From NCBI GenBank assembly GCA_011390635.1, contig JAABSA010000001.1, positions 80,623 to 144,622 on the forward strand: a DNA stretch of 64,000 nt. The letters are read 5' to 3'. The notes beneath the pieces were generated by a model that was not told where the DNA came from, did not search any database, and saw only the letters and a program-made list of their open reading frames with translations. Below, piece after piece: positions 1-34,000 of this stretch. The stretch's first letter is position 1; each line of letters begins with the position of its first letter. The translations under genes were made by a program, and so were the position numbers. The stretch is from Desulfotignum sp. (lineage in GTDB: Bacteria; Desulfobacterota; Desulfobacteria; Desulfobacterales; Desulfobacteraceae).

Positions 1-1707
1 CGGTTTTTTCCTGCGGTTTATCCGTTTTATGATACTCTGTCGTTCTACATCATCCAGGGCATAAAAAACCTCTTTTCCCACATCGATCCGGTACAAAGGC
101 GGCATGGCCATAAACACATGCCCTGCCTGAACCACCATGGGAAAATGTTTCAGGAAAAGGGCACAAAGGAGTGTGGCAATATGAAGTCCGTCAGAATCCG
201 CATCTGCCAGAATGCAGATCTTGTTGTACCGGAGCCTGGAAATATCTTCCTGGCCGGGCAGCACGCCCAGTACCTGGACAATATCTCTGATCTCTTTTGA
301 TTCAATGATGGCGGAGGCCGGCATATCCCAGGTGTTCAGAATCTTGCCCCGCAGGGGCATGATGGCCTGAAACCGCCTGTCTCTGGCCTGTTTGGCAGAT
401 CCGCCCGCAGAGTCTCCTTCCACAAAAAAAAGTTCCCTGCGCTGCTGGTCATCACTGGTACAGTCCGACAGTTTGGCCGGCAGGACTATTCCGTTTGCCG
501 CCTGTTTTCTGGTTATTTTTTTGGATTTTTTTACCCGGGCTCTGGCCTGTTCCATGGCAAGCTGTGCCAAAGCCTCTCCCAAGTCAACATGCTGATTGAG
601 CCAGAGACTGAAGGCATCCCGTACCTTGGGATTCACAAGATTGGCACAATGCCGTGATGATAATCTTTCCTTGGTCTGGCCTGAAAACTGGGCTTCCGAT
701 AGCTTTACGGACAGAACATACCCCACATTGCTCCAGATATCTTCCGGTGCCAGAAACAGATTTTTGGGCAGAAGGTTTCGAAATTTGCAGAATTCCCGCA
801 AAGATTCCAGCAGACCGGATCTGAATCCATTGACATGGGTGCCTCCCAGACGGGTGGGAATCAGATTTACATAGCTTTCTTCCATGCCGGATCCTGTTTC
901 CGTCACCCAGTTGACCGCCCATACAGCCTGGAACTCGTCTGTCTGACAATTGCCGGTAAATGGTGTTGGGAACAATGTTTTATGGCCCTTGAGGTTTTCA
1001 TTCAAATATTCATCCAGGCCATGATCATAAAACCAGGTGTGGTTTTCTCCTGTGGCTTCATCCAGAAAACTGGTTTGTAATCCCTTGCACAGGACCGCTT
1101 TTGATTTCAAGGCATTTTTTATGGCGGTTTTAGAAAAAAAGGTTCTTTCAAAATAATCCGGGTTGGGAAAAAACTGCACCCGGGTGCCGGTGTTATTTTC
1201 TTGGGTTTCCCCCACCACTGCAAGCTCCCGGGTTTTGATACCGTTTTCAAACCCAATGGAAAACTGCTGTCCTTTGCGCCAAATAGTGATTTCAAGCCAT
1301 GCTGACAGGGCATTGACAACAGACACGCCCACCCCGTGCAGCCCGCCTGAAAATGCATAGTCTTTGTTGGAAAATTTGGCCCCTGCATGCAGCCGGGTCA
1401 TGATCAGTTCCACGCCTGAAAGATCTTCTTCGGGATGGATATCCACGGGCATTCCCCGGCCGTTGTCGGTTACAATGATGCTGTTGTCTTTTGTAAGTGT
1501 CACATCAATGGTATCGGCAAATCCGGCAATCGCTTCATCTACACTGTTGTCGATGACTTCGAACACAAGATGATCCGGGCTTGTGGTATCCGTATACATC
1601 CCGGGACGGCGTTTGACAGGGTCCAGCCCCTTGAGAATTTCTATGGATTCCGCGTCATATTTTCCGGCCCTGCCGGCCGGTTCATCCTTTGATGCAAGTG
1701 ATTTCAT
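1..1707 (-). CDS. parE: Type IIA DNA topoisomerase B subunit, ParE-like (topoisomerase IV subunit B); C-terminus lies beyond the window start
   Basis: Absent from the ORF track because no stop lies in the window. Hand translation of the minus strand from ATG at 1705..1707 gives MKSLASKDEPAGRAGKYDAESIEILKGLDPVKRRPGMYTDTT..VIDNSVDEA..DNGRGMPVDIHPEE..RLHAGAKF..GGLHGVGVSVVNALS (GHKL ATPase). Around 120-420 it gives ELFFVEGDSAGGSAKQARDRRFQAIMPLRGKILN..ILADADSDGLHI (Toprim). The frame is open down to position 1 (569 codons). ParE rather than GyrB is a judgement from close resemblance to the E. coli ParE N-terminus. Confidence 0.9.
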   Translation of the reverse strand, partial: MKSLASKDEPAGRAGKYDAESIEILKGLDPVKRRPGMYTDTTSPDHLVFEVIDNSVDEAIAGFADTIDVTLTKDNSIIVTDNGRGMPVDIHPEEDLSGVELIMTRLHAGAKFSNKDYAFSGGLHGVGVSVVNALSAWLEITIWRKGQQFSIGFENGIKTRELAVVGETQENNTGTRVQFFPNPDYFERTFFSKTAIKNALKSKAVLCKGLQTSFLDEATGENHTWFYDHGLDEYLNENLKGHKTLFPTPFTGNCQTDEFQAVWAVNWVTETGSGMEESYVNLIPTRLGGTHVNGFRSGLLESLREFCKFRNLLPKNLFLAPEDIWSNVGYVLSVKLSEAQFSGQTKERLSSRHCANLVNPKVRDAFSLWLNQHVDLGEALAQLAMEQARARVKKSKKITRKQAANGIVLPAKLSDCTSDDQQRRELFFVEGDSAGGSAKQARDRRFQAIMPLRGKILNTWDMPASAIIESKEIRDIVQVLGVLPGQEDISRLRYNKICILADADSDGLHIATLLCALFLKHFPMVVQAGHVFMAMPPLYRIDVGKEVFYALDDVERQSIIKRINRRKKP

Positions 1708-1841
1708 ATATTTTTTTACGTTGTACTATTAACACTAATTCTTTATATTGGGTTTTGGGCATCCGTTGTTTTGCATTATTGTAAACATGACCATATATCA
1801 CTTTTAAATAAAAAGGTAAAATACAACAAAATATTCTGACA

Positions 1842-4800
1842 ATGACTGATTTGTCTTCCCCGTTTGATGAAAAAAATTTTGAAGTTCTATGGGCATCTCT
1901 GGATGATGAAAAAAAAATCGATCTGGTGACCCGGGCCGGTACCCTGCCTCCTTCTCTTGGGATCATTCCTGTGATGGAAGCGGTTTTATCCTATCCATTT
2001 TCCCTTCGAACCAACGCACAGAAAACCCTGGGCATTATACAGGCAGGTATTCTGGCCATGCTGAATGATCCTGAAAACCTTCCATTGCATACCCGGGGAT
2101 TAAAAGAGTCTGCCAAGGTTTGTGCCAGGATCTACCAGCGGATCACATCTGATATATCCTTGAATGAAAGTATCTATTTGTGTAAAACCCTGGTGGAATT
2201 TGGTGAACCTGGTGCGTATTTTGCCTTTAAATCCATGCTCAACGCCTCTGTCAGCGTGACTGCCATGCAAAAGGCTGTGAATCTGGTCACCGATTCACAA
2301 CGTCTTGGTTTCATCGACCAGTATCTTCAGTCTTCCCCTGAAATCCGCCTGAGATATGCCCATGTGTTCAAAAAAATGCTCAATAACATCAATACCCGGG
2401 AAGCGGTCATTGATTTTTTTGCCGGCCTGTTTGACCGCAAACGGGATGCAGATCCCTTTTTGAACAATATTCCTGTTTTTTTGCGGGACCCGGACACCCT
2501 GGTGAAAAACGAAATACAATCCCAGTCTCCGGCCGTCAGGATCAAGGGTCTTAAAGCCCTGTCCATGTTGAAAGGAAAACTGCCCATTGACCTGCTTACA
2601 CATATTCTGGAAAATGAGGAGGTCAAAAAAACAAGAGAAGCAGTATACAGCCTGATCGAAAATTCATCCATGGGGATGTATCCACAACTATTTGATCCTG
2701 TATTCCGCCTTTTTGTAAAATCAGACATACACGAGGCGTTCAATGCCTTTAAAGCCCTTATAGTGACAGGTAAAAAGCCGGTGCATCTCCTTATCACCCA
2801 GGTGAGAGAAATTCATCCGGATCTTATACCTATTCTTTCAAGTGAACTTGCCGGTTTATCCAGGCTTTCTTTTTTTGTAATTCAAGATATTGCCCTGAAT
2901 AAATCACAATATCTGGAAACTAATTTTGATATCAATCTGGCCTGCATACTTGGCATAATTAAAAAAAGACCCGAACGGGTGGTACGTGTCCTCAGTGCCC
3001 ATGACACAATATCTGGACAAAAACCCACACGTCCGATGTTTGGGTTCATGGAAAAAGCAAGGTCACTTCTGGAACTGGAAAAACAGGATATTTCATCCTG
3101 GTTTGAAACCATGAGCCAGAAGCTCGAGCAGCCTGCGGAAAAACAAAAAAACATCTTCTCGGCAATGTTTTCTGATCCCGTTAAAAAAAAGCTGCAAATA
3201 CTGAGGGAAAATATTCCCAGCAAAACCATTGATCTTTCGGATGTAACCATTACAGATGAAAATTTTTCTGATCTTCGGTTTTCAGCATCAACCCTGTGTT
3301 GTAACGGTGCCACCCTTAAAAATTGTGATTTTTCAGGCTCTTGTATGGAAAATGCCTGTTTCAGACATGCGGTTTTCTATAACATCGACTGGTCAGGGGC
3401 GGTGGTAAAAAACGTTACATTTGATCATGCTGTTCTGATAAATATCAATGCCGGAAAAACCCGGTTTGTGAACTGCAGTTTCCAGGGGGCCAGGTTGTAT
3501 AACTGCAATTTTACCCAGGCAGATCTCCATGATACCATATTGATTGATGCGGTCATTGCCAAAACGGTTTTCAACCATGCCAATCTGTCCTGTGCTGTGT
3601 TTTCCCACGCCAGGATATCAGGGGTTTCCTTTGCCACAGCCTGCATTGATCAGGCTGATTTTTCTTTTGTCCAGTCCCGGTTTTCCCGTTTCCCCTCCTG
3701 TGCCGGTGCCATGATCCGCTCCCGGGGTATTGCATATAATGCCAGACGGTATCAACTTGGGTTTAAAGATCTGCCCTGTATGGAAAAATCCATTGCAGCA
3801 AAAATCAATCTGCTGATTTTCTGTGAGTTTATCCATTACGGAGAAATGAAATTTTTGAATCAGAACAAAATGAGTATTCTCACTGCATTTGATATTTTTA
3901 AACCTTCCCAGGCGGATTTTTTTCAACTGGTTCCCCTGCTGCTGCACAAAAACATTGATCTGCCGGGTACACCACCCATACATCCGAAAACACCCTGTGG
4001 CATAGCAGATTTTCTGCCTCCCAAAACGACACTGCAGGTACTTGAAAAAGTAATCGGTATGCACAAATACAAGGCAACACACATTTCTACGCCCTATATC
4101 GAAGGTGTTTTTACCATGGGCAGTGTGGGATCTTTGGCCCAGACCCATGAATCGGACATTGATTATTGGATCTGTATCAATGAAACGCTCATGAATGCCC
4201 ATGAGCACTCTTTGTTTTTGCAAAAGCTCAAAATGCTGGAAAAATTGGCCCTGGAACGATTTAAGATTCAGACGACATTTTTTGTGGTGGATATTCAAAA
4301 GGCGAAAAACAATGATTTCGGGGGATCGACCCAGGAGAGTTCCGGCTCAGCCCAATCCATGCTGTTGAAAGAAGAATTTTACAGAACCATGATCCATGTG
4401 GCAGGAAAACTGCCCCTCTGGTCGGTACTTCCCACACCCATAAGCCTGCACTATTACCACATGATCATGACGCAGATCAGTCGGTTTTCCAGATACCAAC
4501 GGTATATCGACTTAGGAGACATTCATGCCATACCGGTAAACGAATTTTTCGGCGCTTCCATCTGGCAGATGTTCAAATGGCTGAAAAGCCCTTTTAAATC
4601 GGTGATTAAAATGGCGCTGCTGGAAAAATATATCCATTCCTATGGACAGGAACCTCTTTTGTGCAACCAGTATAAAAATGTATGGATGAATTCGGGCACC
4701 CACCTGAAACTGGCTCAGAATGATTCATATATCATCCTGCTGAACAACCTGCTTGCCTATTACCGGTCTGCCGGCGATACAAAATCCATGAACCTGATCC

Positions 4801-5732
4801 TCACCTGTTTTTTTTTAAAACTGGGCATTTCAAAGGAAGCTGTCCTGGACAATACCGTATTCGGGCTGCGCAGACACCTGATGACCGATTCCTTAATGAA
4901 ATGGGGGTGGAGTCTTTCCAGGCTCTTTGAGATCGGGCATTTCAAAGCATGGGATTACCAGCGGATCTACCGGGTGTCAGCCTCCATTGAACGGTATATG
5001 CTCATAAAATACAATCAGGTTAAAAATACCTTTGAAACCACTTCCAAAGGGTTGATGATTTCAAACGATGACCGCCGGGTGCTGGAGCGGAAAGTGGATA
5101 TTGTTTTTCAGGACAAGCCGTTCAAAATAAAAAAAATTCTGCTGGTTTCCAGAAGCGACCGACTGTTTTCACGGCTGCATATCCGATATCTGCATGGATA
5201 TGACAGCCAGGCAAAATGGGAATTGTTGCACAAATCCGCCCGGATCCACCAGAGCCATGACGAGTCACTGGTGCAAACCCGGACTATTGAGCAAATAGGG
5301 GCATGGCTCATCAACAACGGCCTTTTTAACGAGCAGTCAACCGTCACCCTCATACCCAACCCCATGCCGGTTACCCATGATGATATCCTCAAATTGTTCT
5401 GCGCAATGAACGACTTTTTTGCACCGCAAATGAATCAAACTTTCCAGTTTACCGAGTTGAAAAAAAAATCTCCCGGCGTGATCTGTGTGTTTATCAGTAT
5501 CAACTTTTACACTCCCCGCCAGGAATCCAGAATCAAAGACTACTGTGTTGTGTATATCAACTCCTGGGGTGAAATGTTTTACCATACCTGCATTCCCGAT
5601 CGGGAATACCACTCTTTTAATGCCGCCAAAAGAGAGATTCTTGACCATCTGGGCATCCGGAAATTTCCGTTAAAGACCTCTTTTTATTTTTCCAAAGGCC
5701 GGCCCGGTAAAGGGACTGCCCCAAGACTGTGA
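1842..5732 (+). CDS. 1296-aa multidomain protein: N-terminal helical region, about 25 pentapeptide repeats, C-terminal class I (CyaA-type) adenylate cyclase core
   Basis: Track ORF. From about residue 759 it aligns by eye with the E. coli CyaA catalytic region: MGSVGSLAQTHESDIDYWICI (cf GSTGSVGQSTSSDLDIWVC), LLKEEFYRT (cf LLLDEFYRT), NEFFGASIWQMFKWLKSPFKSVIKMALLEKY (cf [31 protein letters not shown]). The start codon is not supported by a clear SD. Confidence 0.85.
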   Translation: MTDLSSPFDEKNFEVLWASLDDEKKIDLVTRAGTLPPSLGIIPVMEAVLSYPFSLRTNAQKTLGIIQAGILAMLNDPENLPLHTRGLKESAKVCARIYQRITSDISLNESIYLCKTLVEFGEPGAYFAFKSMLNASVSVTAMQKAVNLVTDSQRLGFIDQYLQSSPEIRLRYAHVFKKMLNNINTREAVIDFFAGLFDRKRDADPFLNNIPVFLRDPDTLVKNEIQSQSPAVRIKGLKALSMLKGKLPIDLLTHILENEEVKKTREAVYSLIENSSMGMYPQLFDPVFRLFVKSDIHEAFNAFKALIVTGKKPVHLLITQVREIHPDLIPILSSELAGLSRLSFFVIQDIALNKSQYLETNFDINLACILGIIKKRPERVVRVLSAHDTISGQKPTRPMFGFMEKARSLLELEKQDISSWFETMSQKLEQPAEKQKNIFSAMFSDPVKKKLQILRENIPSKTIDLSDVTITDENFSDLRFSASTLCCNGATLKNCDFSGSCMENACFRHAVFYNIDWSGAVVKNVTFDHAVLININAGKTRFVNCSFQGARLYNCNFTQADLHDTILIDAVIAKTVFNHANLSCAVFSHARISGVSFATACIDQADFSFVQSRFSRFPSCAGAMIRSRGIAYNARRYQLGFKDLPCMEKSIAAKINLLIFCEFIHYGEMKFLNQNKMSILTAFDIFKPSQADFFQLVPLLLHKNIDLPGTPPIHPKTPCGIADFLPPKTTLQVLEKVIGMHKYKATHISTPYIEGVFTMGSVGSLAQTHESDIDYWICINETLMNAHEHSLFLQKLKMLEKLALERFKIQTTFFVVDIQKAKNNDFGGSTQESSGSAQSMLLKEEFYRTMIHVAGKLPLWSVLPTPISLHYYHMIMTQISRFSRYQRYIDLGDIHAIPVNEFFGASIWQMFKWLKSPFKSVIKMALLEKYIHSYGQEPLLCNQYKNVWMNSGTHLKLAQNDSYIILLNNLLAYYRSAGDTKSMNLILTCFFLKLGISKEAVLDNTVFGLRRHLMTDSLMKWGWSLSRLFEIGHFKAWDYQRIYRVSASIERYMLIKYNQVKNTFETTSKGLMISNDDRRVLERKVDIVFQDKPFKIKKILLVSRSDRLFSRLHIRYLHGYDSQAKWELLHKSARIHQSHDESLVQTRTIEQIGAWLINNGLFNEQSTVTLIPNPMPVTHDDILKLFCAMNDFFAPQMNQTFQFTELKKKSPGVICVFISINFYTPRQESRIKDYCVVYINSWGEMFYHTCIPDREYHSFNAAKREILDHLGIRKFPLKTSFYFSKGRPGKGTAPRL
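3306..3680 (+). repeat. Protein-level pentapeptide-repeat tract (about 25 consecutive units) inside the cyclase ORF
   Basis: GATLK NCDFS GSCME NACFR HAVFY NIDWS GAVVK NVTFD HAVLI NINAG KTRFV NCSFQ GARLY NCNFT QADLH DTILI DAVIA KTVFN HANLS CAVFS HARIS GVSFA TACID QADFS. A hydrophobic residue recurs at the 4th position of almost every unit (one exception, NINAG), with no register break. Confidence 0.85.
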
Positions 5733-5750
5733 AAACAAAACCGGAGAAAT

Positions 5751-5772
5751 CTGCACTGGTGAACCAGTGCAG
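5751..5772 (+). terminator. Perfect 9-bp stem / 4-nt loop hairpin 19 nt after the cyclase stop; possible terminator, attenuator or mRNA end-stabiliser
   Basis: CTGCACTGG-TGAA-CCAGTGCAG read directly. No U-tract follows, so intrinsic termination is uncertain. Confidence 0.35.
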
Positions 5773-5883
5773 AGTATGGTATAGATGATATATGAAAACT
5801 GTGACCAACAAACCAGGTCAATTGGACCATCCCATGGAACAGATTGACTTTTTACCTGGAAACATATAAAAACGGACCTGCGT

Positions 5884-6180
5884 TTGAAAAAACAAATACA
5901 ATTGTCTCAAAAAACCATTGTCATAAATGATTTGGGAATGCATGCAAGACCTGCAGCCCAGATAGCTAAAATGGCCATGACCGCAGAAAAAGATATCTGG
6001 CTGTCAGATGGAACTACCCGGGTGGATGCCGCAAGTATCATAGATATTTTAACCCTGTGCGCCCTGAAGGGCTCCTGTCTCCATATTCAGGCGGAATCTT
6101 CTGAAGATGCCGCGGTGGTGGAAAATATCAAAGCCTTTTTTGACGATGGATTCGGAGAAGTGACAAATGAATCAAGTTAA
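5884..6180 (+). CDS. ptsH: HPr-family phosphocarrier protein
   Basis: LGMHARPAAQIAK contains the HPr active-site His motif (G-x-H-A-R-P-A), and the size is right. The track start is TTG at 5884; a second in-frame TTG at 5902 would put the His at the canonical position of about 15. The start is therefore uncertain. Confidence 0.85.
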   Translation: MKKQIQLSQKTIVINDLGMHARPAAQIAKMAMTAEKDIWLSDGTTRVDAASIIDILTLCALKGSCLHIQAESSEDAAVVENIKAFFDDGFGEVTNESS

Positions 6181-7936
6181 ACCCCGTGAAATGGTCCTTA
6201 AAGGCATCAGCGGGTCCCCTGGCATCTGCATTGGAAAAGCCTATATGGTGGACAGAGAAGGGGTCAACATCATTGAGCGGTATCCGGTTTCCAGTTCCAT
6301 GGTGCCCCGGGAAATCGACCGGTTCAAAAGTGCCGTGGCAAATGCCAAAAAAGAACATGCCCGGATTATAGAAGCCCTTGATGAAGATGTGAGCGAGACC
6401 CTGAACATCCTGGAAACCCATATGGCTTTATTCAAGGATAAGATGTTGTATGGCAAAACCATTGACACCATCCAAACCGAGCAGATCAATGCAGAATGGG
6501 CCTTGAGAAAAGTCGCCCGCAAGGTGAAGCTCATGTTCCAGCAGGTGGATGACCAGTACCTGAAAGCACGGGTCAATGACATTGTTCAGGTTTCAGACAA
6601 GATCATGTCTTATCTGCTGGGTGCCCGGGATATCAAGATTGGTGACATCACCAAACGGGTCATCATAGTTGCCCATGACCTGACCCCGGCCGATGCCAGC
6701 CAGATCCAGCTGGAACGTATCAAAGGCTTTATAACCGACCGGGGGGGCAAAGACTCCCACACCGCTATTGTGGCCAAATCTTTAAAGATTCCTTCTGTTT
6801 TTGGCCTGGCTCGTGCCACAGCCTGTATCAATAATGATGATATCCTTATTGTGGACGGATCTTCAGGTATCATCATCATCAATCCCGAAGAAGATACCCT
6901 GTTTAAATACGAAGAACGCCTGGCCCGGTTTGAAGCCTACCGGGCGGATATAGAAAGAGACAGCCATCTGCCGGCAGTTACCAAAGACGGGATATCCCTC
7001 AGCCTCATGGCCAATATTGAACTGGTGGAAGAGGTGGTGTCTGCAAAGGACAACGGAGCAGACGGCATCGGACTTTTCAGAACAGAATTTCTGTATCTTG
7101 ATCTGGAGCGTTTTCCCACTGAAGATGAGCTGCTTGTCAAATACAAGGAACTGGTGGAACTGATGAGCCCCCAGTCGGTGACCATCCGTACACTGGACAT
7201 AAACGGAGACAAGTTCAATCCGTATATCGATCCTGTGGAAGAGGCCAACCCCGCCCTTGGGCTTCGGGCGGTGCGGTTCTGCCTGGAAAACAAAGATATT
7301 TTCATCACCCAGATCAAGGCCATTCTCCGGGCAGCGGCATTTGGCAATATCAAGCTGCTTATCCCCATGATCTCCTGTATGGAAGAATTGTTGCAGGTAA
7401 AAGCCATCATTAATCAGGCGGTTGCAGAACTTGAAAATGATGACAAGATATTCAACAAGGACATTCCGCTGGGAATCATGATCGAGGTGCCGTCAGCAGT
7501 ACTCATGGCTGATGAGCTGGCCCGGCAGGTGGATTTTTTCAGTATCGGCACCAACGATCTGATCCAGTACTCCATGGCCATTGACCGGCGCAACCGCAGG
7601 GTAGCCCATTTATACCAGGCCCTGAACCCTGCAGTATTAAAAATGATCAAAATGACTTTTGCTGCTGCACAAAAAAATAATATTGAACTGGTCATGTGCG
7701 GTGAAATGGCAGGAGACCCCATAAACATACCTGTTTTGCTGGGCTTTGGATTAAAAAATCTGTCCATGAACCCGGCATCTATTCCGGTGATTAAAAAAAT
7801 GATCCGGAATATGGATTATCAAAAAGCGTGCACATTTGCACAAAAGGTTCTGAAATTTTCCACTGTCCAGGAGATTACACGGTTTACACAGGCAGAATAT
7901 AAAGATATTCTACCCTATAAAGAGATGGAAGAGTAA
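6167..7936 (+). CDS. ptsI: Phosphoenolpyruvate-protein phosphotransferase (PTS Enzyme I)
   Basis: LKGISGSPGICIGKA; GGKDSHTAIVAKSL (phospho-His region); IGTNDLIQY; CGEMAGDP. GGAG lies 9 nt upstream of ATG 6167. The gene overlaps the ptsH end by 14 nt. There is no GAF domain, so it is EI type, not PtsP type. Confidence 0.93.
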   Translation: MNQVKPREMVLKGISGSPGICIGKAYMVDREGVNIIERYPVSSSMVPREIDRFKSAVANAKKEHARIIEALDEDVSETLNILETHMALFKDKMLYGKTIDTIQTEQINAEWALRKVARKVKLMFQQVDDQYLKARVNDIVQVSDKIMSYLLGARDIKIGDITKRVIIVAHDLTPADASQIQLERIKGFITDRGGKDSHTAIVAKSLKIPSVFGLARATACINNDDILIVDGSSGIIIINPEEDTLFKYEERLARFEAYRADIERDSHLPAVTKDGISLSLMANIELVEEVVSAKDNGADGIGLFRTEFLYLDLERFPTEDELLVKYKELVELMSPQSVTIRTLDINGDKFNPYIDPVEEANPALGLRAVRFCLENKDIFITQIKAILRAAAFGNIKLLIPMISCMEELLQVKAIINQAVAELENDDKIFNKDIPLGIMIEVPSAVLMADELARQVDFFSIGTNDLIQYSMAIDRRNRRVAHLYQALNPAVLKMIKMTFAAAQKNNIELVMCGEMAGDPINIPVLLGFGLKNLSMNPASIPVIKKMIRNMDYQKACTFAQKVLKFSTVQEITRFTQAEYKDILPYKEMEE

Positions 7937-7939
7937 GGC

Positions 7940-8404
7940 ATGACCTCTGATTATATAAAGCTTGTGGCCTCCAATAAAAAAGCCCGCCACAATTTTCACA
8001 TTGATGCGGAATTTGAAGCCGGCATTGTACTGGTTGGATCAGAAGTCAAAGCCATCCGGGAAGGGCGGGTCAGTTTCCAGGATTCCTACGCTGATATCAG
8101 ACGTGGAGAGGTGTTTTTGCGCCAGCTGCACATCTCCCCATATAAATTTGCGTACAATGATAACCATGAACCCGTGCGGACCAGAAAACTGCTGCTCCAT
8201 AAAGGTGAAATTTCAAAGCTGATCGGGAAAATCAAAGAAAGAGGATATACTCTGGTCCCTTTAAAAATCTATTTTAAAAATGATAAAATCAAAGTGCTGC
8301 TGGGTCTTGGAAAAGGCAAGAAATTGTTTGACAAGCGGCAGACCATAAAAGAGCGTGACGTTAAACGGGACATGGACCGGAATCGCAAGAAATATTCCGC
8401 TTAA
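7940..8404 (+). CDS. smpB: SsrA-binding protein SmpB
   Basis: NKKARHNFHI..GSEVKAIREG..LLLHKGEI..LVPLKIYF is typical SmpB. The tmRNA gene follows immediately. Confidence 0.93.
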   Translation: MTSDYIKLVASNKKARHNFHIDAEFEAGIVLVGSEVKAIREGRVSFQDSYADIRRGEVFLRQLHISPYKFAYNDNHEPVRTRKLLLHKGEISKLIGKIKERGYTLVPLKIYFKNDKIKVLLGLGKGKKLFDKRQTIKERDVKRDMDRNRKKYSA

Positions 8405-16100: not shown

Positions 16101-18812
16101 CTATTTGTCCATGATGGCGGCCTGGGCTGCTGCCAGCCGTGCAATGGGTACCCGGTAAGGAGAACACGATACATAGGTGAGGCCTGCCCTGTGACAGAAC
16201 GCCACTGAATCAGGATCTCCCCCGTGTTCGCCGCAGATCCCCAGTTTGATATCAGGCCGTGTTTTTTTTCCCCGGTCCACAGCGATTTCAATAAGGCTGC
16301 CCACTGCCTCCTGATCCAGGGTTTCAAAGGGATCTGCGTCCAAAATGGCATTGTCAATATAATCGTTCATAAACGAGCCGATATCATCCCTGGAAAATCC
16401 AAAGGTCATCTGGGTCAGATCATTGGTACCAAAGGAAAAGAACTGGGCATATTCGGCCATTTTATCCGCGATCAAAGCAGCCCTGGGGATTTCAATCATG
16501 GTGCCGTATAAATAGGGTATCTGCGCCAGATTATGGGTCTTCAGGGCTTTTTCGTAACAGTCATCAACAATTTTTTTGGTAAAAGACAGTTCTTTTTCAT
16601 TGCAGGTGACCGGCACCATGATTTCAGGCAGGGGGTGTCTGCCCTGGTGGATCAGGTCTGCAGATGCTGCAAAAATAGCTTTCACCTGCATTCTGGTGAT
16701 GTCAGGAAAACTGATTCCCAGACGGACCCCCCGGTGCCCGATCATGGGATTGGATTCTTTCAAAAGCATGCTGCGCTTGATCACTTCCTCCAAATCTATG
16801 CCCAGAGCCCTGGCAATTTCCATCTGGTTTTGCTCTGCGCCGGGTACAAATTCGTGCAAAGGCGGATCAAGCAGCCGCAGGGTTACCGGCAGGTTGTCCA
16901 TGACAGCCAGGGTTTTTTGTATCTCCTCTTTTACAAACGGGAACAGCTCATCCAGAGCTACCTTCCGCTCTTCTATTGTTTTGCTTAAAATCATTTTTCG
17001 CAGCAGAAACAGCGGCCGGTCTGATTCAGCCCCGTAGAACATATGCTCTGTGCGGAAAAGCCCGATACCCTGTGCCCCGAACTCCAGGGCAGTTGCCGCA
17101 TCTTTGGGCGTATCAGCATTGGTGCGTACCGCCATGGTCCGGTGGCGGTCGGCAATGGTCATGAATTTTTTGAATTTGGGATTTTCCAGGGCATCTTTCA
17201 TTTGGAGCCGGCCCTCATAAACGATACCGCGGGTGCCGTTTAAGGTGAAAATATCTCCTTCATTAAAGATCCTTGTACCTGCCTGCACCTGACGGGTTTT
17301 TGCATTTATTTTCAGGGCACCGGCGCCCACAATGCAGCACTTTCCCCATCCCCTTGCCACCAGGGCCGCATGGCTGGTCATACCGCCTCTGGCCGTAAGT
17401 ACGGCAGCGGCAGCCCGCATGCCTTCAATATCTTCCGGATTGGTTTCTTCTCTGACCAGTATTGCGTTTTCACCGGTTTTTGCCAGATAGACAGCATCTT
17501 CTGCTGTAAATACAATTTTTCCCCAGGCTCCACCGGGGCCTGCAGGCAGGCCTTCCGCCACTTTGACAGCCGTTTTTTCCTGTTCCGGGTCCACTATGGG
17601 ATGAAGCATTTCATCCAGGGTTTTGGGATTCAGGCGGCAGACCATGGTTTTTTCATCAATCATGCCCTGTTCATGCATGTCCATGGCCATGTTTAAAGCC
17701 GCTGTGGCGGTCCTTTTTCCCACCCGGCACTGGAGCATGTATAATCTGCCTTCCTGGATGGTGAATTCAATATCCTGCATATCCTTGTAATGGGCTTCCA
17801 GCTTGTTTCTGATATCATACAGCTGGCCATAGAGTTCGGGCATGGCCTCTTCCAGGGAAGCAAGATGCTGATTCTGCATATTCTTTGTATCTGTGTTCAA
17901 AGGGTTGGGGGTGCGGCTGCCTGCGACCACATCTTCGCCCTGTGCATTCACCAGCCATTCTCCGAAAAAAATGTTCCTGCCGGTGGCAGGGTCACGGGTA
18001 AATGCCACACCGGTTGCAGAGGTGTTTCCCATGTTGCCGAACACCATGCTCTGCACATTCACTGCCGTTCCCCAGGAATCAGGAATATGTTCAATGCGGC
18101 GGTAGGATACCGCTCGCTTACCATTCCAGCTCTTGAACACCGCCCCTATTGCTCCCATGAGCTGTTCATGGGGGTCATCTGGAAAATCTTTTTTCAGGTA
18201 CTGCCGAATTTTTTTTTTGAACCGGTCACACAGGGCCTTCATATCCTGGGTGGAAATGTCGGTATCGTTTTCATATCCCCGGTCATTTTTCAGGTTGTTC
18301 ATCATCATTTCCAGATTCAGCCGGATACCCATACCATCTTCGGGCACCACCTGTTCTGTTTTTTCCATGACCACATCTGAGTACATCATGATCAGCCGGC
18401 GGTAGGCATCATACACAAACCATTCATTGCCGGTTTTTTTCACCAGTCCCGGAATGGTTTTGGAGCACAATCCTACATTTAGAATGGTTTCCATCATCCC
18501 GGGCATGGAGCTTCTGGCCCCGGATCGGCAGGACACCAGCAGGGGGGATGCGGGATCTCCAAAGAGCAGCCCCATCTGGGTTTCAATATTTGCCATGGCT
18601 GTCATGATATCTGGTTCAAGGGTAGGGGGAAACCGGCCGCCCAGATCTAAATAATGGTTGCAGCATGCCGTGGAAATGGTGAATCCCGGAGGTACCGGCA
18701 GGCCCATGCGTGCCATTTCAGCCAGATTGGCGCCTTTTCCACCCAGAAGATTTTTCAAGGATACGTCCCCTTCAGTTTTTTCGGGGCCGAATTCATAGAT
18801 GTATTTGGTCAT
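16101..18812 (-). CDS. ppdK: Pyruvate, phosphate dikinase
   Basis: 903 aa. KNLLGGKGANLAEM, GGMTSHAALVARGWGKCCIVG (catalytic His), FFSFGTNDLTQ, ICGEHGGDP. Confidence 0.95.
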   Translation of the reverse strand: MTKYIYEFGPEKTEGDVSLKNLLGGKGANLAEMARMGLPVPPGFTISTACCNHYLDLGGRFPPTLEPDIMTAMANIETQMGLLFGDPASPLLVSCRSGARSSMPGMMETILNVGLCSKTIPGLVKKTGNEWFVYDAYRRLIMMYSDVVMEKTEQVVPEDGMGIRLNLEMMMNNLKNDRGYENDTDISTQDMKALCDRFKKKIRQYLKKDFPDDPHEQLMGAIGAVFKSWNGKRAVSYRRIEHIPDSWGTAVNVQSMVFGNMGNTSATGVAFTRDPATGRNIFFGEWLVNAQGEDVVAGSRTPNPLNTDTKNMQNQHLASLEEAMPELYGQLYDIRNKLEAHYKDMQDIEFTIQEGRLYMLQCRVGKRTATAALNMAMDMHEQGMIDEKTMVCRLNPKTLDEMLHPIVDPEQEKTAVKVAEGLPAGPGGAWGKIVFTAEDAVYLAKTGENAILVREETNPEDIEGMRAAAAVLTARGGMTSHAALVARGWGKCCIVGAGALKINAKTRQVQAGTRIFNEGDIFTLNGTRGIVYEGRLQMKDALENPKFKKFMTIADRHRTMAVRTNADTPKDAATALEFGAQGIGLFRTEHMFYGAESDRPLFLLRKMILSKTIEERKVALDELFPFVKEEIQKTLAVMDNLPVTLRLLDPPLHEFVPGAEQNQMEIARALGIDLEEVIKRSMLLKESNPMIGHRGVRLGISFPDITRMQVKAIFAASADLIHQGRHPLPEIMVPVTCNEKELSFTKKIVDDCYEKALKTHNLAQIPYLYGTMIEIPRAALIADKMAEYAQFFSFGTNDLTQMTFGFSRDDIGSFMNDYIDNAILDADPFETLDQEAVGSLIEIAVDRGKKTRPDIKLGICGEHGGDPDSVAFCHRAGLTYVSCSPYRVPIARLAAAQAAIMDK

Positions 18813-21059: not shown

Positions 21060-23276
21060 ATGATTAAAAGTCCAAAGGGAAAATCCAGTCTCACATCCAC
21101 CATCAAGGATCAGTCCGGTGCCGGTAAAACCAGGATAGGGGAAATCCTTTCCAAGGAAGGACAGATCACCAGTCTTCAGCTGGATGAGGCCCTGGGGGTT
21201 CACAAAAAAACCGGCGAACGTCTCAGTTCCATCCTGCTCAACAAAGGGTATATTGATCCGGAAACCATCATCAATGTATTGGGAAGAATCTATAATTACA
21301 ATGTGATCCGGTTTGCAGAAATGAAACCCGATGCAGCGGCCCAAAAAATGCTTCCCTTTGATATGGCCAAAGAACATATGGTATTTCCCCTGGCACTGAA
21401 GAATGATGACCTGTCCGTGGCCATGGTGGAACCTACCGACACCCAGGTAGTGGAAGAACTCCACAAAAGCACCAGAAAAAATATCCACGTGTATGTCACC
21501 ACTGAAAATGATATTATCCAGGCCTACCGGGATTTTTACAAGATCAGTGATGAAGCCTATAAAAAATTTCTCCATTTTGAAGAAGATGGGGAAGATGACA
21601 CCCCTGTTACCTCTGTGGATGATTTTGGTTCCCTGGTATCAGAGGCTGCGGAAGAAATTGAGGTTGGTGCTGCTGAAAGAGATGATGGCCAGGATGAATT
21701 TATGGCCTCTGATGCCCCCATCATCAAGCTTGTAAACGGGATCTTGACCAAAGCCATCAATGACGGGGTGTCTGATATTCACATTGAGCCCTTTGAAAAA
21801 TCTTTCCAGGTCCGGTACCGGCTGGACGGCGGCATGTACAAGGCCATGAACCTGCCGGTATCCATCAAAAATGCCGTGGTTTCCCGCATTAAAATTCTGG
21901 CATCCCTGGATATTGCAGAAAGACGGGTTCCCCAGGACGGCCGGATCAAATTGCGCCTGGGCAGAAAAAAATCAGTGGATTTCCGGGTATCATCCCTGCC
22001 CACCCTGTTCGGGGAGAGCATTGTCATGCGGATACTGGACCAGAGTGCCTTGAGCATTGATCTGACCCGGCTGGGATTTGAATCAGCCACTTTTGACATG
22101 CTCAAGCGCAGCATTTCACGGCCCTATGGCCTGCTGCTGGTCACAGGCCCCACCGGATCAGGCAAAACCACCACCCTGTATTCCATCCTCAACCGGCTCA
22201 ACAAGGATGATATCAAAATTCTTACAGCTGAAGATCCCGTGGAATTCAACTTCAAAGGCATCAATCAGGTGCCGGTGAGAGAAGAGATCGGCATGACATT
22301 CGCCGCTGCCTTAAAAGCCTTTCTGCGCCAGGACCCGGACATCATCATGGTGGGGGAAATCCGGGATATCGAGACAGCGGAAATCGCCATAAAGGCAGCC
22401 ATGACCGGTCACCTGGTATTTGCCACCCTGCATACCAATGATTGTCCCTCCACCATCGGCCGCCTGGTTGACATCGGTATTCCGCCTTATATGCTGGCAG
22501 CATCAGTAACCATGGTCCTGTCCCAGCGCCTTGCCCGGCGGCTGTGCCCGGAGTGTAAAAAAGAGGTCACCGGATATAATGCCAATGAACTGGAACTTCA
22601 CGGATTTCCCAAAACCGAGATCCCCAATCTGAAAATCATGGGTCCCAACGGATGCAGCCATTGCAACGGTACCGGCTACAAAGGCAGAGTAGGGCTGTAT
22701 GAACTCATGGAGGTTACCGATGAGGTGGCCAAGGCCATCAGTGCGGAAGTGGCCGAGGACCAGCTGCGAAAGGTGGCGGTCCAGGAAGGGATGGTCACCT
22801 TGCGGGATGCCGGCCTTCAGAAGATCAAAACAGGGGAAACATCACTGGAAGAGGTGGCAAAAAAAACGGTTATCACGAAAGAGTCTTTGCCCGCCTACCT
22901 GGTGAATCCTGATGTGGAAACTTACGAGGACAAAGATGTTATCATCCGGGAAAACAATACAGATATCGATTTTTTCAAACTGGTTCAGGGTGCGGTGTAT
23001 GTGGTCAAAGGAGGCAAAAAAATTGCAGAAATCACCCAGCCCGGAGAATATTTCGGGGAAATGGCCGCCATCACCAAAGATGCCCGGTCCGCATCCATCA
23101 TCTCCAAGGGCCGATCCAAGATCAAGCGGTTTCCCGGAGACAAATTAGAAGAAATCATTGAAAAATATCCGGAGGTGGCAAAGCATTTGTTTACGGTACT
23201 GGCGGCCCGTCTCCACCAAACCGACCGGCGCCTGGTCTCCATGATCAACCAGATCAGAAAAGTCCCCCCCAACTAA
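21060..23276 (+). CDS. PilB/GspE-family (T2SSE) secretion/pilus ATPase with MshEN-like N-terminal domain and C-terminal cyclic-nucleotide-binding domain
   Basis: GPTGSGKTT (Walker A), DPDIIMVGEIRD (Walker B), TGHLVFATLHTND (His box), CPEC..CSHCNGTGYKGR (tetra-Cys). N-terminus: RIGEILSKEGQITSLQLDEALGVH-KKTGE-RLSSILLNKGYIDPETIINVLGRI. C-terminus (about residues 612-738): YFGEMAAITKDARSASIIS, the phosphate-binding cassette FGE..RSA. Confidence 0.9.
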   Translation: MIKSPKGKSSLTSTIKDQSGAGKTRIGEILSKEGQITSLQLDEALGVHKKTGERLSSILLNKGYIDPETIINVLGRIYNYNVIRFAEMKPDAAAQKMLPFDMAKEHMVFPLALKNDDLSVAMVEPTDTQVVEELHKSTRKNIHVYVTTENDIIQAYRDFYKISDEAYKKFLHFEEDGEDDTPVTSVDDFGSLVSEAAEEIEVGAAERDDGQDEFMASDAPIIKLVNGILTKAINDGVSDIHIEPFEKSFQVRYRLDGGMYKAMNLPVSIKNAVVSRIKILASLDIAERRVPQDGRIKLRLGRKKSVDFRVSSLPTLFGESIVMRILDQSALSIDLTRLGFESATFDMLKRSISRPYGLLLVTGPTGSGKTTTLYSILNRLNKDDIKILTAEDPVEFNFKGINQVPVREEIGMTFAAALKAFLRQDPDIIMVGEIRDIETAEIAIKAAMTGHLVFATLHTNDCPSTIGRLVDIGIPPYMLAASVTMVLSQRLARRLCPECKKEVTGYNANELELHGFPKTEIPNLKIMGPNGCSHCNGTGYKGRVGLYELMEVTDEVAKAISAEVAEDQLRKVAVQEGMVTLRDAGLQKIKTGETSLEEVAKKTVITKESLPAYLVNPDVETYEDKDVIIRENNTDIDFFKLVQGAVYVVKGGKKIAEITQPGEYFGEMAAITKDARSASIISKGRSKIKRFPGDKLEEIIEKYPEVAKHLFTVLAARLHQTDRRLVSMINQIRKVPPN

Positions 23277-30179: not shown

Positions 30180-31004
30180 GTGTATTACATTTATTTTCCC
30201 TATGTTCTGCTGTTGTCCGGACTGATTCTGGTGGACTGCTCTATGAAAAAAAATCCCAAATGGTGGGCTGCCATGGTTCTGGTGGCGCCCGTCACCACCC
30301 CGTATGTTATTTTTAAATCCAGAAAAACCAGGGGTATGATCCTGTTCATGGTGTTTTTGGCCAGTTTTTCAGGGGTTGCTGCCGCAGAATTTTATATCTG
30401 GACACAAGAAAAAGAAAAAAACAGATACGCCCATCTGCCGCCCATAACCAGTCAGGTTATACGGCTTTGTGACAATCTCAAGCAGATCACCCATGATCTG
30501 GATACCGGATTGATCCAGCTGGAACATATGTCCAAGGTGGAATCAAGTCTGGATAAATTACACCAGACCATTGCGTTCATAAAAACATTGCGCATTACCC
30601 TGGCCCGGAACCAGGATGCCATTGATCAGCTGGTCAAATTTACCACAGACTACAAAGGGTATTTTCTGAAAAAGGAGTTACACTGGATCTATCAGGTACG
30701 CCAGTATTATACCAACCGCCACGTAATCCGCCATTTTGAAAGCCTTCAAACATATCTGGATGATTTCAATGCCCTGCTCACCTATGCCTATAACAATTTT
30801 TCCCTTATAGCAGACCATAAAGATCCCACCCGTTTAAACAATTATGATGAATACTATCTGCGGTACAGGCGGGCAGTGGACCGGCACAATGCCTTCAATG
30901 TCCAGCGCATTGAGTTCCAGAATGAGTATGTGAAAAAGTATCCGGCCATCAAAGACTACCTGCCTGGTGAGCGTCAGACGGAAACTTTTCTGCTGTGGGA
31001 ATAG
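30180..31004 (+). CDS. Membrane protein with PLDc_N-like N-terminal two-TM module and an uncharacterised helical C-terminal domain
   Basis: LILVDCSMKKNPKWWAAMVLVAPVTTPYVIFKSRK resembles the PLDc_N (cardiolipin synthase N-terminal) motif. The remaining ~190 aa have no recognisable motif. Confidence 0.55.
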   Translation: MYYIYFPYVLLLSGLILVDCSMKKNPKWWAAMVLVAPVTTPYVIFKSRKTRGMILFMVFLASFSGVAAAEFYIWTQEKEKNRYAHLPPITSQVIRLCDNLKQITHDLDTGLIQLEHMSKVESSLDKLHQTIAFIKTLRITLARNQDAIDQLVKFTTDYKGYFLKKELHWIYQVRQYYTNRHVIRHFESLQTYLDDFNALLTYAYNNFSLIADHKDPTRLNNYDEYYLRYRRAVDRHNAFNVQRIEFQNEYVKKYPAIKDYLPGERQTETFLLWE

Positions 31005-34000
31005 CCCCTGCGTCTGTAATATTTGATAAAAGGTACAATCACCTTATTTTTATTACCGCCGGATACATCATAGGTAATACTGACGATGGGTATCCCGGTT
31101 CTGGCTTCCAGGGTAGCGGCCATGGCTTCTGTAACCAGGCCGGGACAGCAGAAGCCCGGATTGGTCTGGACCAGGAGGGCCAGATCCGGATGTTCCCGGA
31201 TAATATGGTGGATTTTTAAAATATTGTCCATGGATTCTCCGGTATGCTCCGGCTGAACACCATACTGTTCCAGAACATTTTCACAGGAGTCGGCAACCTG
31301 AAAATCCGATTCCTGCAACAGGGGTTCAAAATAGGGAAAATATTTTTTTTCCATGGTTTGCATGGCAACCAGCAGGGCTTTGTTAGAAATCAGGCTAAAG
31401 TACTTGCCCTCCTTGAACCATTTTTTAAAATAAGAATTGGCAATGATCTTGAGATATTTATAATAGGGTGTGGTGATCACTTCCCCGCCGTTGTCCTCAA
31501 TATAATGAATCAGATCCTGGTTCATGACATCATTGTCTCTGACATACAGGTCTCCGAAAATGGCCACTTTGGGCCGGGTGCCGCAAGGGTTTGTCCTGAT
31601 TTCACCAAACAGGGCAATGGCTTGTGCCAGTGCGTCTTCCTTTGATTCATTACAGGCGAATGCCCGGCTGAGAATGGCCAGTGCCCTGGACAATGTGTGG
31701 TCGGTTTCTCCTTTGTTTCTTTCATAGGGCCGGATCTTGCATCCGATGCTCCTGAGAAGCCCGCCGAACATATAGGCAAAATAGGCATTGGTGGAGGCCC
31801 GAAAAGAGATATCAAACAATGACAATTCCCCCAGATACACCCCTGATTTTTCAAACCCGTTTGCTTCCCGTAACAGTATCTGCTGGATATGATAGGGATA
31901 CATCCTGATATTGCAGGCGATGTCCGAGCGGTTGAGCCAGAGCACGGTTTCTGCCGGGTCCAGGTTGTGTTTTTTTACGGTGTGGATGAAGCCTGCTGCC
32001 ACGGCATTGAGGGGTATGCACTGGCCGGTGTTGGTGAGAAGGCATTTTTTAAGGGTTTCAGGCGTTTCTTCCATTAGAAATGCGTTGTAACCTTCACTGT
32101 GAAAAGTGGATACGATCAATTGGCCGGTCAAGACGTCCCAGTTGGGAAAAATAATGGTTTTTTGTGCCGGCCGGTCAAAATACCGGGGTGCAAAATCCAG
32201 GGGCAGGACAGGTGATTTTTCCGTTGCCTGATAATGGTTGTTAAAAGCCCTTACAGCGGCTTCGATACGGGTTTCATACCCCACACCGGAATCATGCTCA
32301 TCCAGTTCCAAAACCAGGTATGGCTTGTTGCATTTTTCCATGATCTGTTTGAAATAATCCACCCCGAATGCATCTGGTGAGCATTTAAACGAGGTGATAT
32401 ATACCGGGTACAACCCATCGGTCAACGCCGCTGCATAAGTTGTCTCCAGAATTTTTGCCGCATATTTCCAGTGAATTTCCGCCAGCAGGGGACGGATGGG
32501 GGCAAGGTCAATGTCTGATGTATCCAGCATATCCTGGAAAAAAGTTTTGACCCCCATTTTTTCAAACATCTGTGGGATATGGTGGTTCATGGTGTCAGGC
32601 AGAACAGTATAGGGACGTCCCAGCAGCATCACCTTGACCCCGGGTATTCCATGACCTTGTGCCTGGTAAATCCCGGACAGCTTTGCCCGGGTTTGTTTGC
32701 GCAGATCCATGGCGTTGTCCCAGGCGGCGCTGATATCAAAAAATGAAAACAAAAACTTTTGTGATATCTGCTTGAGAGCCCTGTACAGGGCCATTTTGGT
32801 GTGAAAACTGGTGTATAAATATTTAATGGTTGGCATGACCAGACGGTGTGCCTCACACCTGTCCAGGCAGGCAATCACCGACGGGCTGAACTGGGTGTAA
32901 TAGCAATGCTGGCGCCTGATCCGTTTCTGATCTGTTTTTTCTTCAAAATAAAACGGCAAAAACACATAATCTGTTTTTTCAAGCAGATGGGCCACATGGC
33001 CGTGCAATGCCATGACCGGTGCGCAGAACTCTGCCCTGGCAAGGGTTTTACCAAGGGAAACCGGTTGTTTCAGACTGCGGCTGACAATGGTTTTGATGCC
33101 CAGGTATGAAAAAAACACCTCCCAGAATTCCAGGTCTTCATACAGGTGCAAAGCCGCGGGAATTCCCATGGTAAACGGATGTTTTTCCGGGTGACAAACA
33201 AGGGGCGGTGTGTGATTTTTTCTCAGTTTTTTCAGGTCATAGGGATTTTTTCGGGGGACCATTTTCTGGGTATCATAATCTCTGCCGCATAAAAAGCCAT
33301 AAGCCCGGGGCTGGCCATCCACATAAGCAATGGTGAGTTTGCAGTGGTTGGTGCACAACTGACAGACTTCCTGGTGCACCGGTATCTTTTTTTTCCATAG
33401 ATCAAACCCCCGAAACTGTGTATCGGTGATCTGTTGTGCCCTGGCCAGAAGGGCAACGCCCAGGGCACCGGTCAAGTGACAGAACTGGGACACATGGATG
33501 GGTTTTTGCAGTTTCTGTTCAAAGGCTGCCACCAGTGCCCGGTTTCTGGCAGTTGCCCCCTGAAAGAGAATGCAGTTTCCAATCCTGCCCACAGTGGCCA
33601 CTTTGGTCAGATAATTGTCCCGCACCGAATGGAGAACAGACGCCAAAATATCATTTTTTGCATATCCTTCGGCAAAATAGTAATTGATGTCACGTTCCAT
33701 GAAGACCGTGCATCTGTCACTGGACACCGGGGCCTTAATCCCTTCTGCCCTGCCGGAATATTCTGAAAGGGGACAGGACAGTTTTAGCGCCTGTTCTTCA
33801 ATGAAACTGCCGGTACCGGCAGCACACACCGTATTCATAACCGATGCGGTCACCCTGCCGTTTTTTACCAGGGTGAATTTGGCATCCTGGCCACCGATTT
33901 CAATGATGGTGTCTACATCCTTGTTCAGATTCACCGCAGCCGTGGCATGGGCGGTTATTTCATCAGGTTCCAGATCCGCACCGATGATCCTGCCGCTGAT

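Follow-up and report, generated by a model that had tools for sequence, protein, structure and literature searches.

In textbook accounts of catabolite repression in E. coli, the cyclic AMP (cAMP) comes from a class I adenylate cyclase. A 64,000-nucleotide stretch of a Desulfotignum sp. genome (assembly GCA_011390635.1, contig JAABSA010000001.1, positions 80,623 to 144,622 of the forward strand; hereafter the window) contains a gene, cya, whose product carries a cyclase of this class at its C-terminal end, behind a long N-terminal arm that consists of an alpha-helical solenoid and a pentapeptide-repeat beta-helix. The locus raises two questions: what this enzyme makes, and what the arm is for. 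The protein proved to be real and conserved, and it represents a variant within a known class of enzymes, not a categorically new system; databases already name such proteins automatically. The reading slightly favoured here is that of a catalytically active class I cyclase that forms cAMP and may be gated in its output through the arm, which would serve to dock a protein.

Cyclase Core and Catalytic Residues

A first reading from sequence alone (the sequence-only reading) had taken the C-terminal half for a CyaA-type cyclase, and this was borne out by domain profiles, by BLASTP to CyaA and by the presence of the catalytic residues. In Pfam, Adenyl_cycl_N (PF12633) was found at residues 670–860 (E 1.2e-48, 166.2 bits against a cut-off of 27), and Adenylate_cycl (PF01295) at residues 888–1200 (E 1.6e-47, 162.8 bits against a cut-off of 27), the latter matched over positions 2–314 of its 601 only. 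CyaA of E. coli K-12 (NC_000913) was 28% identical by BLASTP between residues 675–1173 of the protein and residues 16–512 of CyaA (E 2e-55). An hhalign comparison with a profile of 110 family members stretched the homology to residues 675–1291, opposite CyaA 16–653 (probability 100%, 594 columns). In both BLASTP and the profile alignment, S761, S771, D772, D774, and W776 were aligned with CyaA S103, S113, D114, D116, and W118, all of which were reportedly found to be essential in CyaA by Linder in Biochem J in 2008. The aspartates of this motif were conserved in 109 of the 110 close family members. The alignments thus establish the homology of the cyclase core and the intact state of its predicted catalytic residues.

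The fold agreed with the profiles. A weak Polbeta match in Pfam covered residues 750–821, and an AlphaFold2 (AF2) model of residues 441–1296 (predicted local distance difference test, pLDDT, 88.0; predicted template modelling score, pTM, 0.74) comprised the beta-helix at residues 460–620, a long helix at about 649–685, and the cyclase. When the catalytic core was compared with the PDB by Foldseek, it matched the AAD(9) adenylyltransferase 6xz0 (E 5.5e-4); no class I cyclase structure turned up in the PDB by sequence or fold search. The enzyme would be cytoplasmic and would convert ATP to cAMP at a Pol-beta-type nucleotidyltransferase site. That cAMP is the product can be put forward with high confidence.

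Three divergent members of the family with the full architecture, P0112, P0269, and P0285, had lost the aspartates of the SDxDxW motif (NTMKFY, TTIHYV, and SAINYW, respectively) and are probably pseudo-cyclases. Their retention of the full architecture without the DxD suggested that the scaffold has a role beyond catalysis.

The N-terminal Arm

The extra N-terminal modules claimed in the sequence-only reading are real; they comprise a HEAT-like solenoid, as modelled, and the pentapeptide beta-helix. Their total length had been set too high, at about 690 residues: in a MAFFT alignment with CyaA, 659 residues preceded CyaA residue 1. Mean identity to the window protein within the family was 45% over the solenoid, 44% over the beta-helix, and ~59% over the cyclase.

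Modelled by AF2 with a 110-sequence alignment, residues 1–470 were all-alpha, with about 25 helices (pLDDT 89.4, pTM 0.79). Foldseek against the PDB matched the solenoid to generic solenoids only (alphaRep, importin-alpha/beta, PP2A-A, and beta-catenin), with E-values of at least 1.3e-3 and template modelling scores of 0.2–0.4. The HEAT_2 model of Pfam scored below its threshold in the window protein (E 0.02, 15.6 bits vs. 27.7) and was significant in three distant family members (best E 4e-13). Conserved patches of the solenoid included LFDRxRDADPFLNN (residues 196–209) and KKRPERV (residues 374–380). An exhaustive phmmer search with residues 1–440 against 1.84 billion representatives returned 65 matches, all of them family proteins (~1250–1394 residues) or fragments. 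Other homes for the solenoid were also sought with a word-index profile search, which returned fragments of the same family only. The linker that follows was modelled with a pLDDT below 50 at residues 434–443, and its residues 431–460 had a family mean isoelectric point (pI) of 10.0.

The criterion for a pentapeptide-repeat domain was a tandem run of eight or more A(D/N)LXX-like units, each with a hydrophobic centre residue, together with a predicted right-handed quadrilateral beta-helix. When the sequence was written in fives, 31 units ran in register over residues 465–619. The tract had been described as 25 uninterrupted units at 3306..3680; it is indeed uninterrupted, and that interval, residues 489–613, sits inside the longer run of 31. 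The centre position i was F, L, or I in 74% of the units (F in 52%), and position i-2 was A, V, C, S, or T in 79%. The Pfam pentapeptide models PF00805, PF13599, and PF13576 matched residues ~462–627 (E 8e-14 to 6e-8), PF00805 with 51.3 bits against a cut-off of 20.2; the three profiles that the sequence-only reading had named as a check on its claim (PF12633, PF01295, and PF00805) thus all scored above their gathering thresholds. The beta-helix was modelled with a pLDDT of 90–98, and its Foldseek matches were MfpA, QnrB1, AlbG, and HetL (E 1e-9 to 1e-6).

The beta-helix was constant in length, at 153–155 residues in 17 of 19 distant members, and close to neutral (net charge about -2, family mean -0.9, pI ~6.5). 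Its outward faces were unequally conserved: the entropy of face 1 was 1.61 bits, compared with 2.56 bits for the opposite face 3, and the most conserved surface was formed by faces 0 and 1 of the C-terminal five coils. This asymmetry fits a specific contact surface. The connector between the beta-helix and the cyclase contained the invariant residues N633, R635, E662, and G667, to which F671 can be added.

The C-terminal End

The protein had been described as ending about 250 residues short of CyaA. The difference is smaller, ~195 residues, as the end falls opposite CyaA ~654; the profile and MAFFT alignments found no counterpart of CyaA 655–848. Of the gammaproteobacterial C-terminal region (CyaA ~540–848), only ~540–654 is represented here, by a subdomain with an NSWGE motif in which W1242 and E1244 were invariant. 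CyaA 655–848 is part of the regulatory C-terminal region implicated in control by EIIA-Glc.

It had been suggested that the N-terminal modules replaced this regulatory input. The distribution of the truncation does not support such a replacement. By MAFFT, most members of the HEAT-pentapeptide family finished opposite CyaA ~644–660, and the stand-alone short forms of ~632 residues, which have no arm, stopped at CyaA ~659. Longer stand-alone forms and shorter pentapeptide fusions extended to ~726–790 solely by gapped tail residues. The full length of CyaA was spanned only by forms of ~1050 residues, one of them named as Myxococcota, and by a few others. Since the same truncation occurs in the stand-alone short cyclases and in the shorter pentapeptide fusions, it is independent of the N-terminal fusion and is no evidence of replacement. 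The lack of CyaA 655–848 is a trait common to many class I cyclases outside the Gammaproteobacteria.

Family Distribution and Phylogeny

The sequence-only reading had placed the gene in a non-gammaproteobacterial host. This was correct: the nearest genome locus belonged to a Desulfotignum metagenome-assembled genome (MAG; 93% identity) of the phylum Thermodesulfobacteriota. Its description of class I cyclases as classically known from enterobacteria and related Gammaproteobacteria is outdated, as present databases and metagenomic data show them to be widespread outside that group. Stand-alone class I forms of 625–705 residues came from Nitrospinota, Tectomicrobia, Syntrophia/Syntrophaceae, and Thermodesulfobacteriota, where the sources name them.

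All 68 related genome loci belonged to Desulfobacteraceae or unclassified relatives, and they included the cultured Desulfobacter curvatus, D. latus, D. vibrioformis, and Desulfospira joergensenii. In the protein database, 112 full-length clusters of 1285–1314 residues shared the same Pfam string at 37–100% identity. Many carried the NCBI/JGI name “class I adenylate cyclase,” and one was the “Cya” of Desulfobacula toluolica. All 19 distant members (25–42% identity) had the pentapeptide and class I cyclase domains. The three-part architecture is not due to chance: the domain E-values were far under threshold, and more than 110 homologues kept the whole design. Judged from these comparisons, the design is old, conserved, and common in the lineage, and the N-terminal solenoid is exclusive to the family.

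Three shorter pentapeptide-cyclase fusions of metagenomic origin, P0198 (1064 residues), P0195 (912 residues), and P0153 (786 residues), had an extended connector helix and no large solenoid. When 538 columns of the cyclase alignment were used for a neighbour-joining tree, the HEAT-pentapeptide family came out as monophyletic (99/100), and it grouped with the shorter fusions at 83/100, so that all pentapeptide-bearing class I cyclases formed one clade. This indicated that the pentapeptide fusion probably arose once and that the solenoid was added later or was lost in the shorter forms. The retention of the whole arm by more than 110 clusters, with identities as low as ~25%, the constant length of the beta-helix, its asymmetric face, the invariant connector, the family-only solenoid, and the single clade together argue that the arm is functional.

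In the long-read Desulfobacula MAG CAXXXR010000002.1 (locus L059), the gene was called as two open reading frames (ORFs), P0236 (608 residues; solenoid and pentapeptide repeats) and P0116 (707 residues; cyclase). This probably reflects a frameshift or an assembly error and not a natural split.

Second paralogues of 1290–1301 residues, with the same architecture and ~50% identity to the first copy, were present at L045 (8001..11873) and L058 (8001..11906). The catalytic motif was intact in the paralogues checked (L045, L058, and L032). L032, L047, L060, and L027 also lacked PTS neighbours (phosphotransferase system; see below) and are possible further second-paralogue loci.

Genomic Neighborhood

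The neighbouring genes, which the sequence-only reading had missed, are the sole concrete lead on the input signal. The genes of HPr and Enzyme I, the general proteins of the PTS, were located 3′ of cya in 58 of 68 loci, and the topoisomerase genes parE/parC were divergent on the other side in most loci, with a parC-like gene following parE in related loci. The ptsH-ptsI arrangement was kept in D. toluolica Tol2 and in the 38%-identical member L075. A ~27%-identical lineage (L073 and L074) had lost parE, and there a LOG-family gene and ptsH were still together 7–8 kb downstream of cya. PTS neighbours were absent at the shorter pentapeptide fusions and at three stand-alone short-form contexts. 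In Desulfotignum, no LOG gene stands between cya and ptsH (window 5733..5883), and no terminator was predicted between these two genes in the window. The features are listed in Table 1.

The intergenic region between parE and cya held two blocks that were nearly invariant across 10 Desulfotignum loci, with a variable centre between them; ATGACCATATATCACTTTTAA and AAAAAGGTAAAA lie in one of these blocks, 5′ of the cya ATG. The promoter and terminator scan gave consensus-level matches only, and the cya start codon had no obvious Shine-Dalgarno sequence close by. No CRP-type TGTGA-N6-TCACA site was seen by eye in this region, which contained a conserved imperfect TGA-N7-TCA element.

Three upstream ORFs, 1435..1692 (+), 1119..1388 (-), and 584..949 (-), appeared conserved by tblastn and were rejected as shadow frames within the parE-like gene. 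A defence system (CBASS, Pycsar, Hailong, and the like) was likewise rejected: PADLOC gave no match, the neighbours were housekeeping genes, and a weak HalA match was due to the pentapeptide repeats only.

Farther along the window, 21060..23276 (+) encoded a 738-residue T2SSE/PilB-type secretion or pilus ATPase with an MshEN domain (residues 79–163) and a PF00027 cyclic-nucleotide-binding domain (residues 620–703, E 3e-13). This ATPase, ~15 kb from cya, is a possible cAMP effector.

Table 1. Coordinates of cya, its domains and the surrounding genes (window positions unless a locus is named).
Feature	Position	Strand	Residues, basis or remarks
Whole cya ORF (solenoid, pentapeptide beta-helix, class I cyclase)	1842..5732	+	ATG start, 1296 residues
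HEAT/ARM-like all-alpha solenoid, ~25 helices	1842..3131	+	residues 1–430 (core ~10–430), AF2
Lysine-rich linker and short capping helix before beta-helix	3132..3233	+	residues 431–464, AF2 low confidence
Pentapeptide beta-helix, 31 uninterrupted repeats, ~7.75 coils	3234..3698	+	residues 465–619
Connector running into long helix (residues ~649–685)	3699..3848	+	residues 620–669, conserved
PF12633 class I cyclase N-terminal domain, catalytic, Pol-beta-type nucleotidyltransferase	3849..4421	+	residues 670–860
Catalytic motif GSVGSLAQTHESDIDYW	4119..4169	+	residues 760–776, alignment to CyaA
PF01295 class I cyclase domain	4503..5441	+	residues 888–1200, Pfam
C-terminal alpha/beta subdomain and stop	5442..5732	+	residues 1201–1296, homologous to CyaA ~540–654
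Type IIA topoisomerase B-subunit gene, 5′ part (parE/gyrB-like), divergent from cya, runs off window	1..1707	-	translation; Pfam on orthologues
Divergent parE/cya intergenic region, 134 bp, AT-rich, two conserved blocks	1708..1841		
ptsH (HPr), motif GMHARPA	5884..6180	+	98 residues; PF00381, E 1e-19
ptsI (Enzyme I), no GAF domain	6167..7936	+	589 residues; PF05524, PF00391, PF02896
smpB	7940..8404		downstream of ptsI
LOG gene, locus L009	11895..12638	-	
LOG gene, locus L072	13935..14678	-	
LOG gene, locus L075	11971..12621	-	
Pyruvate phosphate dikinase	16101..18812	-	
BcrAD/BadFG-type CoA-enzyme activase with DUF2229	30974..35179	-	1400 residues
CBS-domain protein fused to poly(A) polymerase/CCA-adding head domain	61668..63998	-	

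Proposed Regulation and Its Alternatives

We propose, with moderate confidence, that control of this cyclase acts through the family-specific N-terminal arm and not through the gammaproteobacterial C-terminal extension. A regulatory role of the arm is suggested by its conservation, its fixed length, its asymmetric conserved surface, and the invariant connector. From the N-terminus, the arm would consist of a HEAT-like solenoid, a flexible basic linker, a rigid beta-helix of 31 pentapeptides, and a conserved connector that passes into the first cyclase helix. A partner protein may dock on the solenoid and on the conserved beta-helix faces, or these parts may fold back against the cyclase; in either case they would gate its activity.

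The partner could come from the adjoining regulatory PTS, as HPr, Enzyme I, or an EIIA encoded elsewhere in the genome, and the cAMP output would then report the phosphoenolpyruvate/pyruvate state. A precedent for such an input is the action of EIIA-Glc on the enterobacterial adenylate cyclase, where an additional, uncharacterised regulatory factor has also been noted in the control of the cyclase by the PTS (PMC2405797). For the present protein, PTS input is no more than a lead, and a doubtful one. In its most specific form, the HPr/Enzyme I phosphorelay would bind the HEAT-pentapeptide arm and control cAMP, as an independently evolved N-terminal coupling of PTS and cyclase in which the beta-helix acts as a rigid lever of fixed length; we regard this form as unlikely. 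To our knowledge, Desulfobacteraceae mostly lack sugar-transporting PTS permeases.

A number of observations weigh against this reading as a whole, or against the PTS as input. None of nine NCBIfam equivalog models for class I cyclases reached its cut-off; the best, NF006981 (638 positions), scored 380.7 bits vs. 802 over residues 668–1249, which marks a divergent subfamily and not an equivalog. The arm might activate, inhibit, or merely localise the enzyme. No invariant histidine was found among the family alignment columns of residues 1–660, and therefore any action of the PTS, if true, would be by binding, as for EIIA-Glc in E. coli, rather than by histidine phosphotransfer. No EIIA gene was seen within 10 kb on either side of cya. 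Unrelated housekeeping genes are part of the block rng-mltF-parC-parE / cya-ptsH-ptsI-smpB, which was conserved as a whole, so that vertical inheritance can explain the adjacency of cya and the PTS genes. A gene of the LOG family (PF03641, SLOG; “lysine decarboxylase-like”) on the opposite strand separated cya from ptsH in most genera, and thus the two do not form an obligatory operon. Finally, the second paralogues at L045 and L058 had no PTS or topoisomerase genes beside them; their neighbours were a histidine kinase, a response regulator, a PAS-DUF294 nucleotidyltransferase, and an HDOD-SpoIIE phosphatase.

Three other explanations were considered. The arm may be a scaffold or localisation device: it would tether a cyclase that is otherwise constitutive or limited by its substrate to a structure or complex in the cell, such as the pilus or secretion apparatus or a signalling cluster, and would thereby create local cAMP pools with no signal transmitted. 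Solenoids of the HEAT/ARM kind and beta-helices of pentapeptides serve generally as scaffolds for protein binding, as the Foldseek matches to importins, PP2A-A, and pentapeptide proteins illustrate; a beta-helix of constant length would suit a rigid spacer, the ATPase with the cyclic-nucleotide-binding domain is encoded 15 kb away, and the paralogues lie in signalling clusters. However, the tethering partner is hypothetical, no membrane or targeting signal was noticed in the protein, and the invariant connector residues beside the first cyclase helix suggest a mechanical coupling to the catalytic domain. We consider it improbable that tethering is all the arm does. Less probable still is a different chemistry, in which the core would be a cGMP, cCMP, or cUMP cyclase, or a nucleotidyltransferase whose substrate is a protein that the arm holds. 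An identity to CyaA of only 28%, scores under all the NCBIfam equivalog cut-offs, the chemical versatility of Pol-beta-fold enzymes (as in the AAD(9) match), and the three members that lost the DxD and retained the architecture could be read in this way. Yet all the CyaA residues reported as essential are kept, the homology runs over ~640 residues and includes non-catalytic subdomains, and proteins that bind cyclic nucleotides are encoded in the genome. For the class I cyclase family, no other activity is known to us.

The topoisomerase genes next to cya raise a further explanation, that the beta-helix is a DNA mimic which binds the divergently encoded ParE/ParC in the manner of Qnr and MfpA, and so couples cAMP to topology or replication, or protects the topoisomerase. 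The divergent parE/parC neighbours in the window and in most loci, the place of MfpA, QnrB1, and AlbG among the best structural matches, and weak NCBIfam matches to Qnr and MfpA models all speak for it. The last of these reached only 16–24 bits against cut-offs of 240–500, though, and any pentapeptide-repeat protein matches MfpA and Qnr by its fold. A mimic would be expected to carry a marked negative charge, as MfpA does, and therefore the near-neutral charge of this beta-helix makes it a poor fit to the acidic type. Moreover, the adjacency to parE is gone in L073, L074, and the paralogues, which retain the beta-helix, and the neighbourhood is a vertically inherited housekeeping block. DNA mimicry is thus very improbable. 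A cAMP-forming cyclase gated by a protein-docking arm remains the slightly preferred account.

Comparison with Known Systems

The sequence-only reading had known of no characterised example of this domain combination. As regards the literature this stands, since no paper was found on class I cyclases fused to pentapeptide or HEAT repeats, nor on cAMP in Desulfobacteraceae; the architecture itself is common and already annotated automatically. The family offers a natural variant of the class that has no Gammaproteobacteria-specific C-terminus and that bears at its other end a large arm, modelled with confidence; cultured hosts exist. It therefore gives a handle on what the minimal class I core needs for regulation, and on whether coupling of the PTS to cAMP exists in strictly anaerobic sulfate reducers. 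Should the arm be regulatory, this would be one of the rare cases in which an internal pentapeptide-repeat domain has a functional role; should it be a scaffold only, the protein would be an ordinary lineage-specific domain fusion.

The solenoid shares its alpha-solenoid architecture with the PP2A A subunit, importins, and alphaRep, with no specific family match. The beta-helix has the right-handed quadrilateral fold of MfpA, Qnr, AlbG, and HetL. MfpA and Qnr mimic DNA as acidic dimers. All four are small stand-alone proteins, whereas the beta-helix here is an internal, near-neutral domain of a 1296-residue enzyme, and it scored far under every cut-off of the NCBIfam Qnr, MfpA, and HetL models. 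Cyanobacterial Ser/Thr kinases are said to include forms with fused pentapeptide repeats, which would be a precedent for signalling enzymes that carry a pentapeptide beta-helix as an accessory part, although with a different catalytic domain.

Among the cyclases, P0198, P0195, and P0153 likewise carry a beta-helix before the cyclase and an extended connector helix, and they are sister to the family on the cyclase tree. They differ in having no ~430-residue solenoid, in their ~30% identity, and in their neighbours, which include no PTS genes. The stand-alone short cyclases (NF006981-type) share the core and, in the ~632-residue forms, a C-terminal end near CyaA ~650–660; they have no arm, no PTS neighbours in three contexts, and ~28–32% identity. 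With CyaA of E. coli (848 residues), the Desulfotignum protein shares CyaA residues 1–654, the GS...SDxDxW motif, and the PF12633 and PF01295 domains. It differs by 659 additional N-terminal residues, by the absence of CyaA 655–848, and by its host, an anaerobic sulfate reducer.

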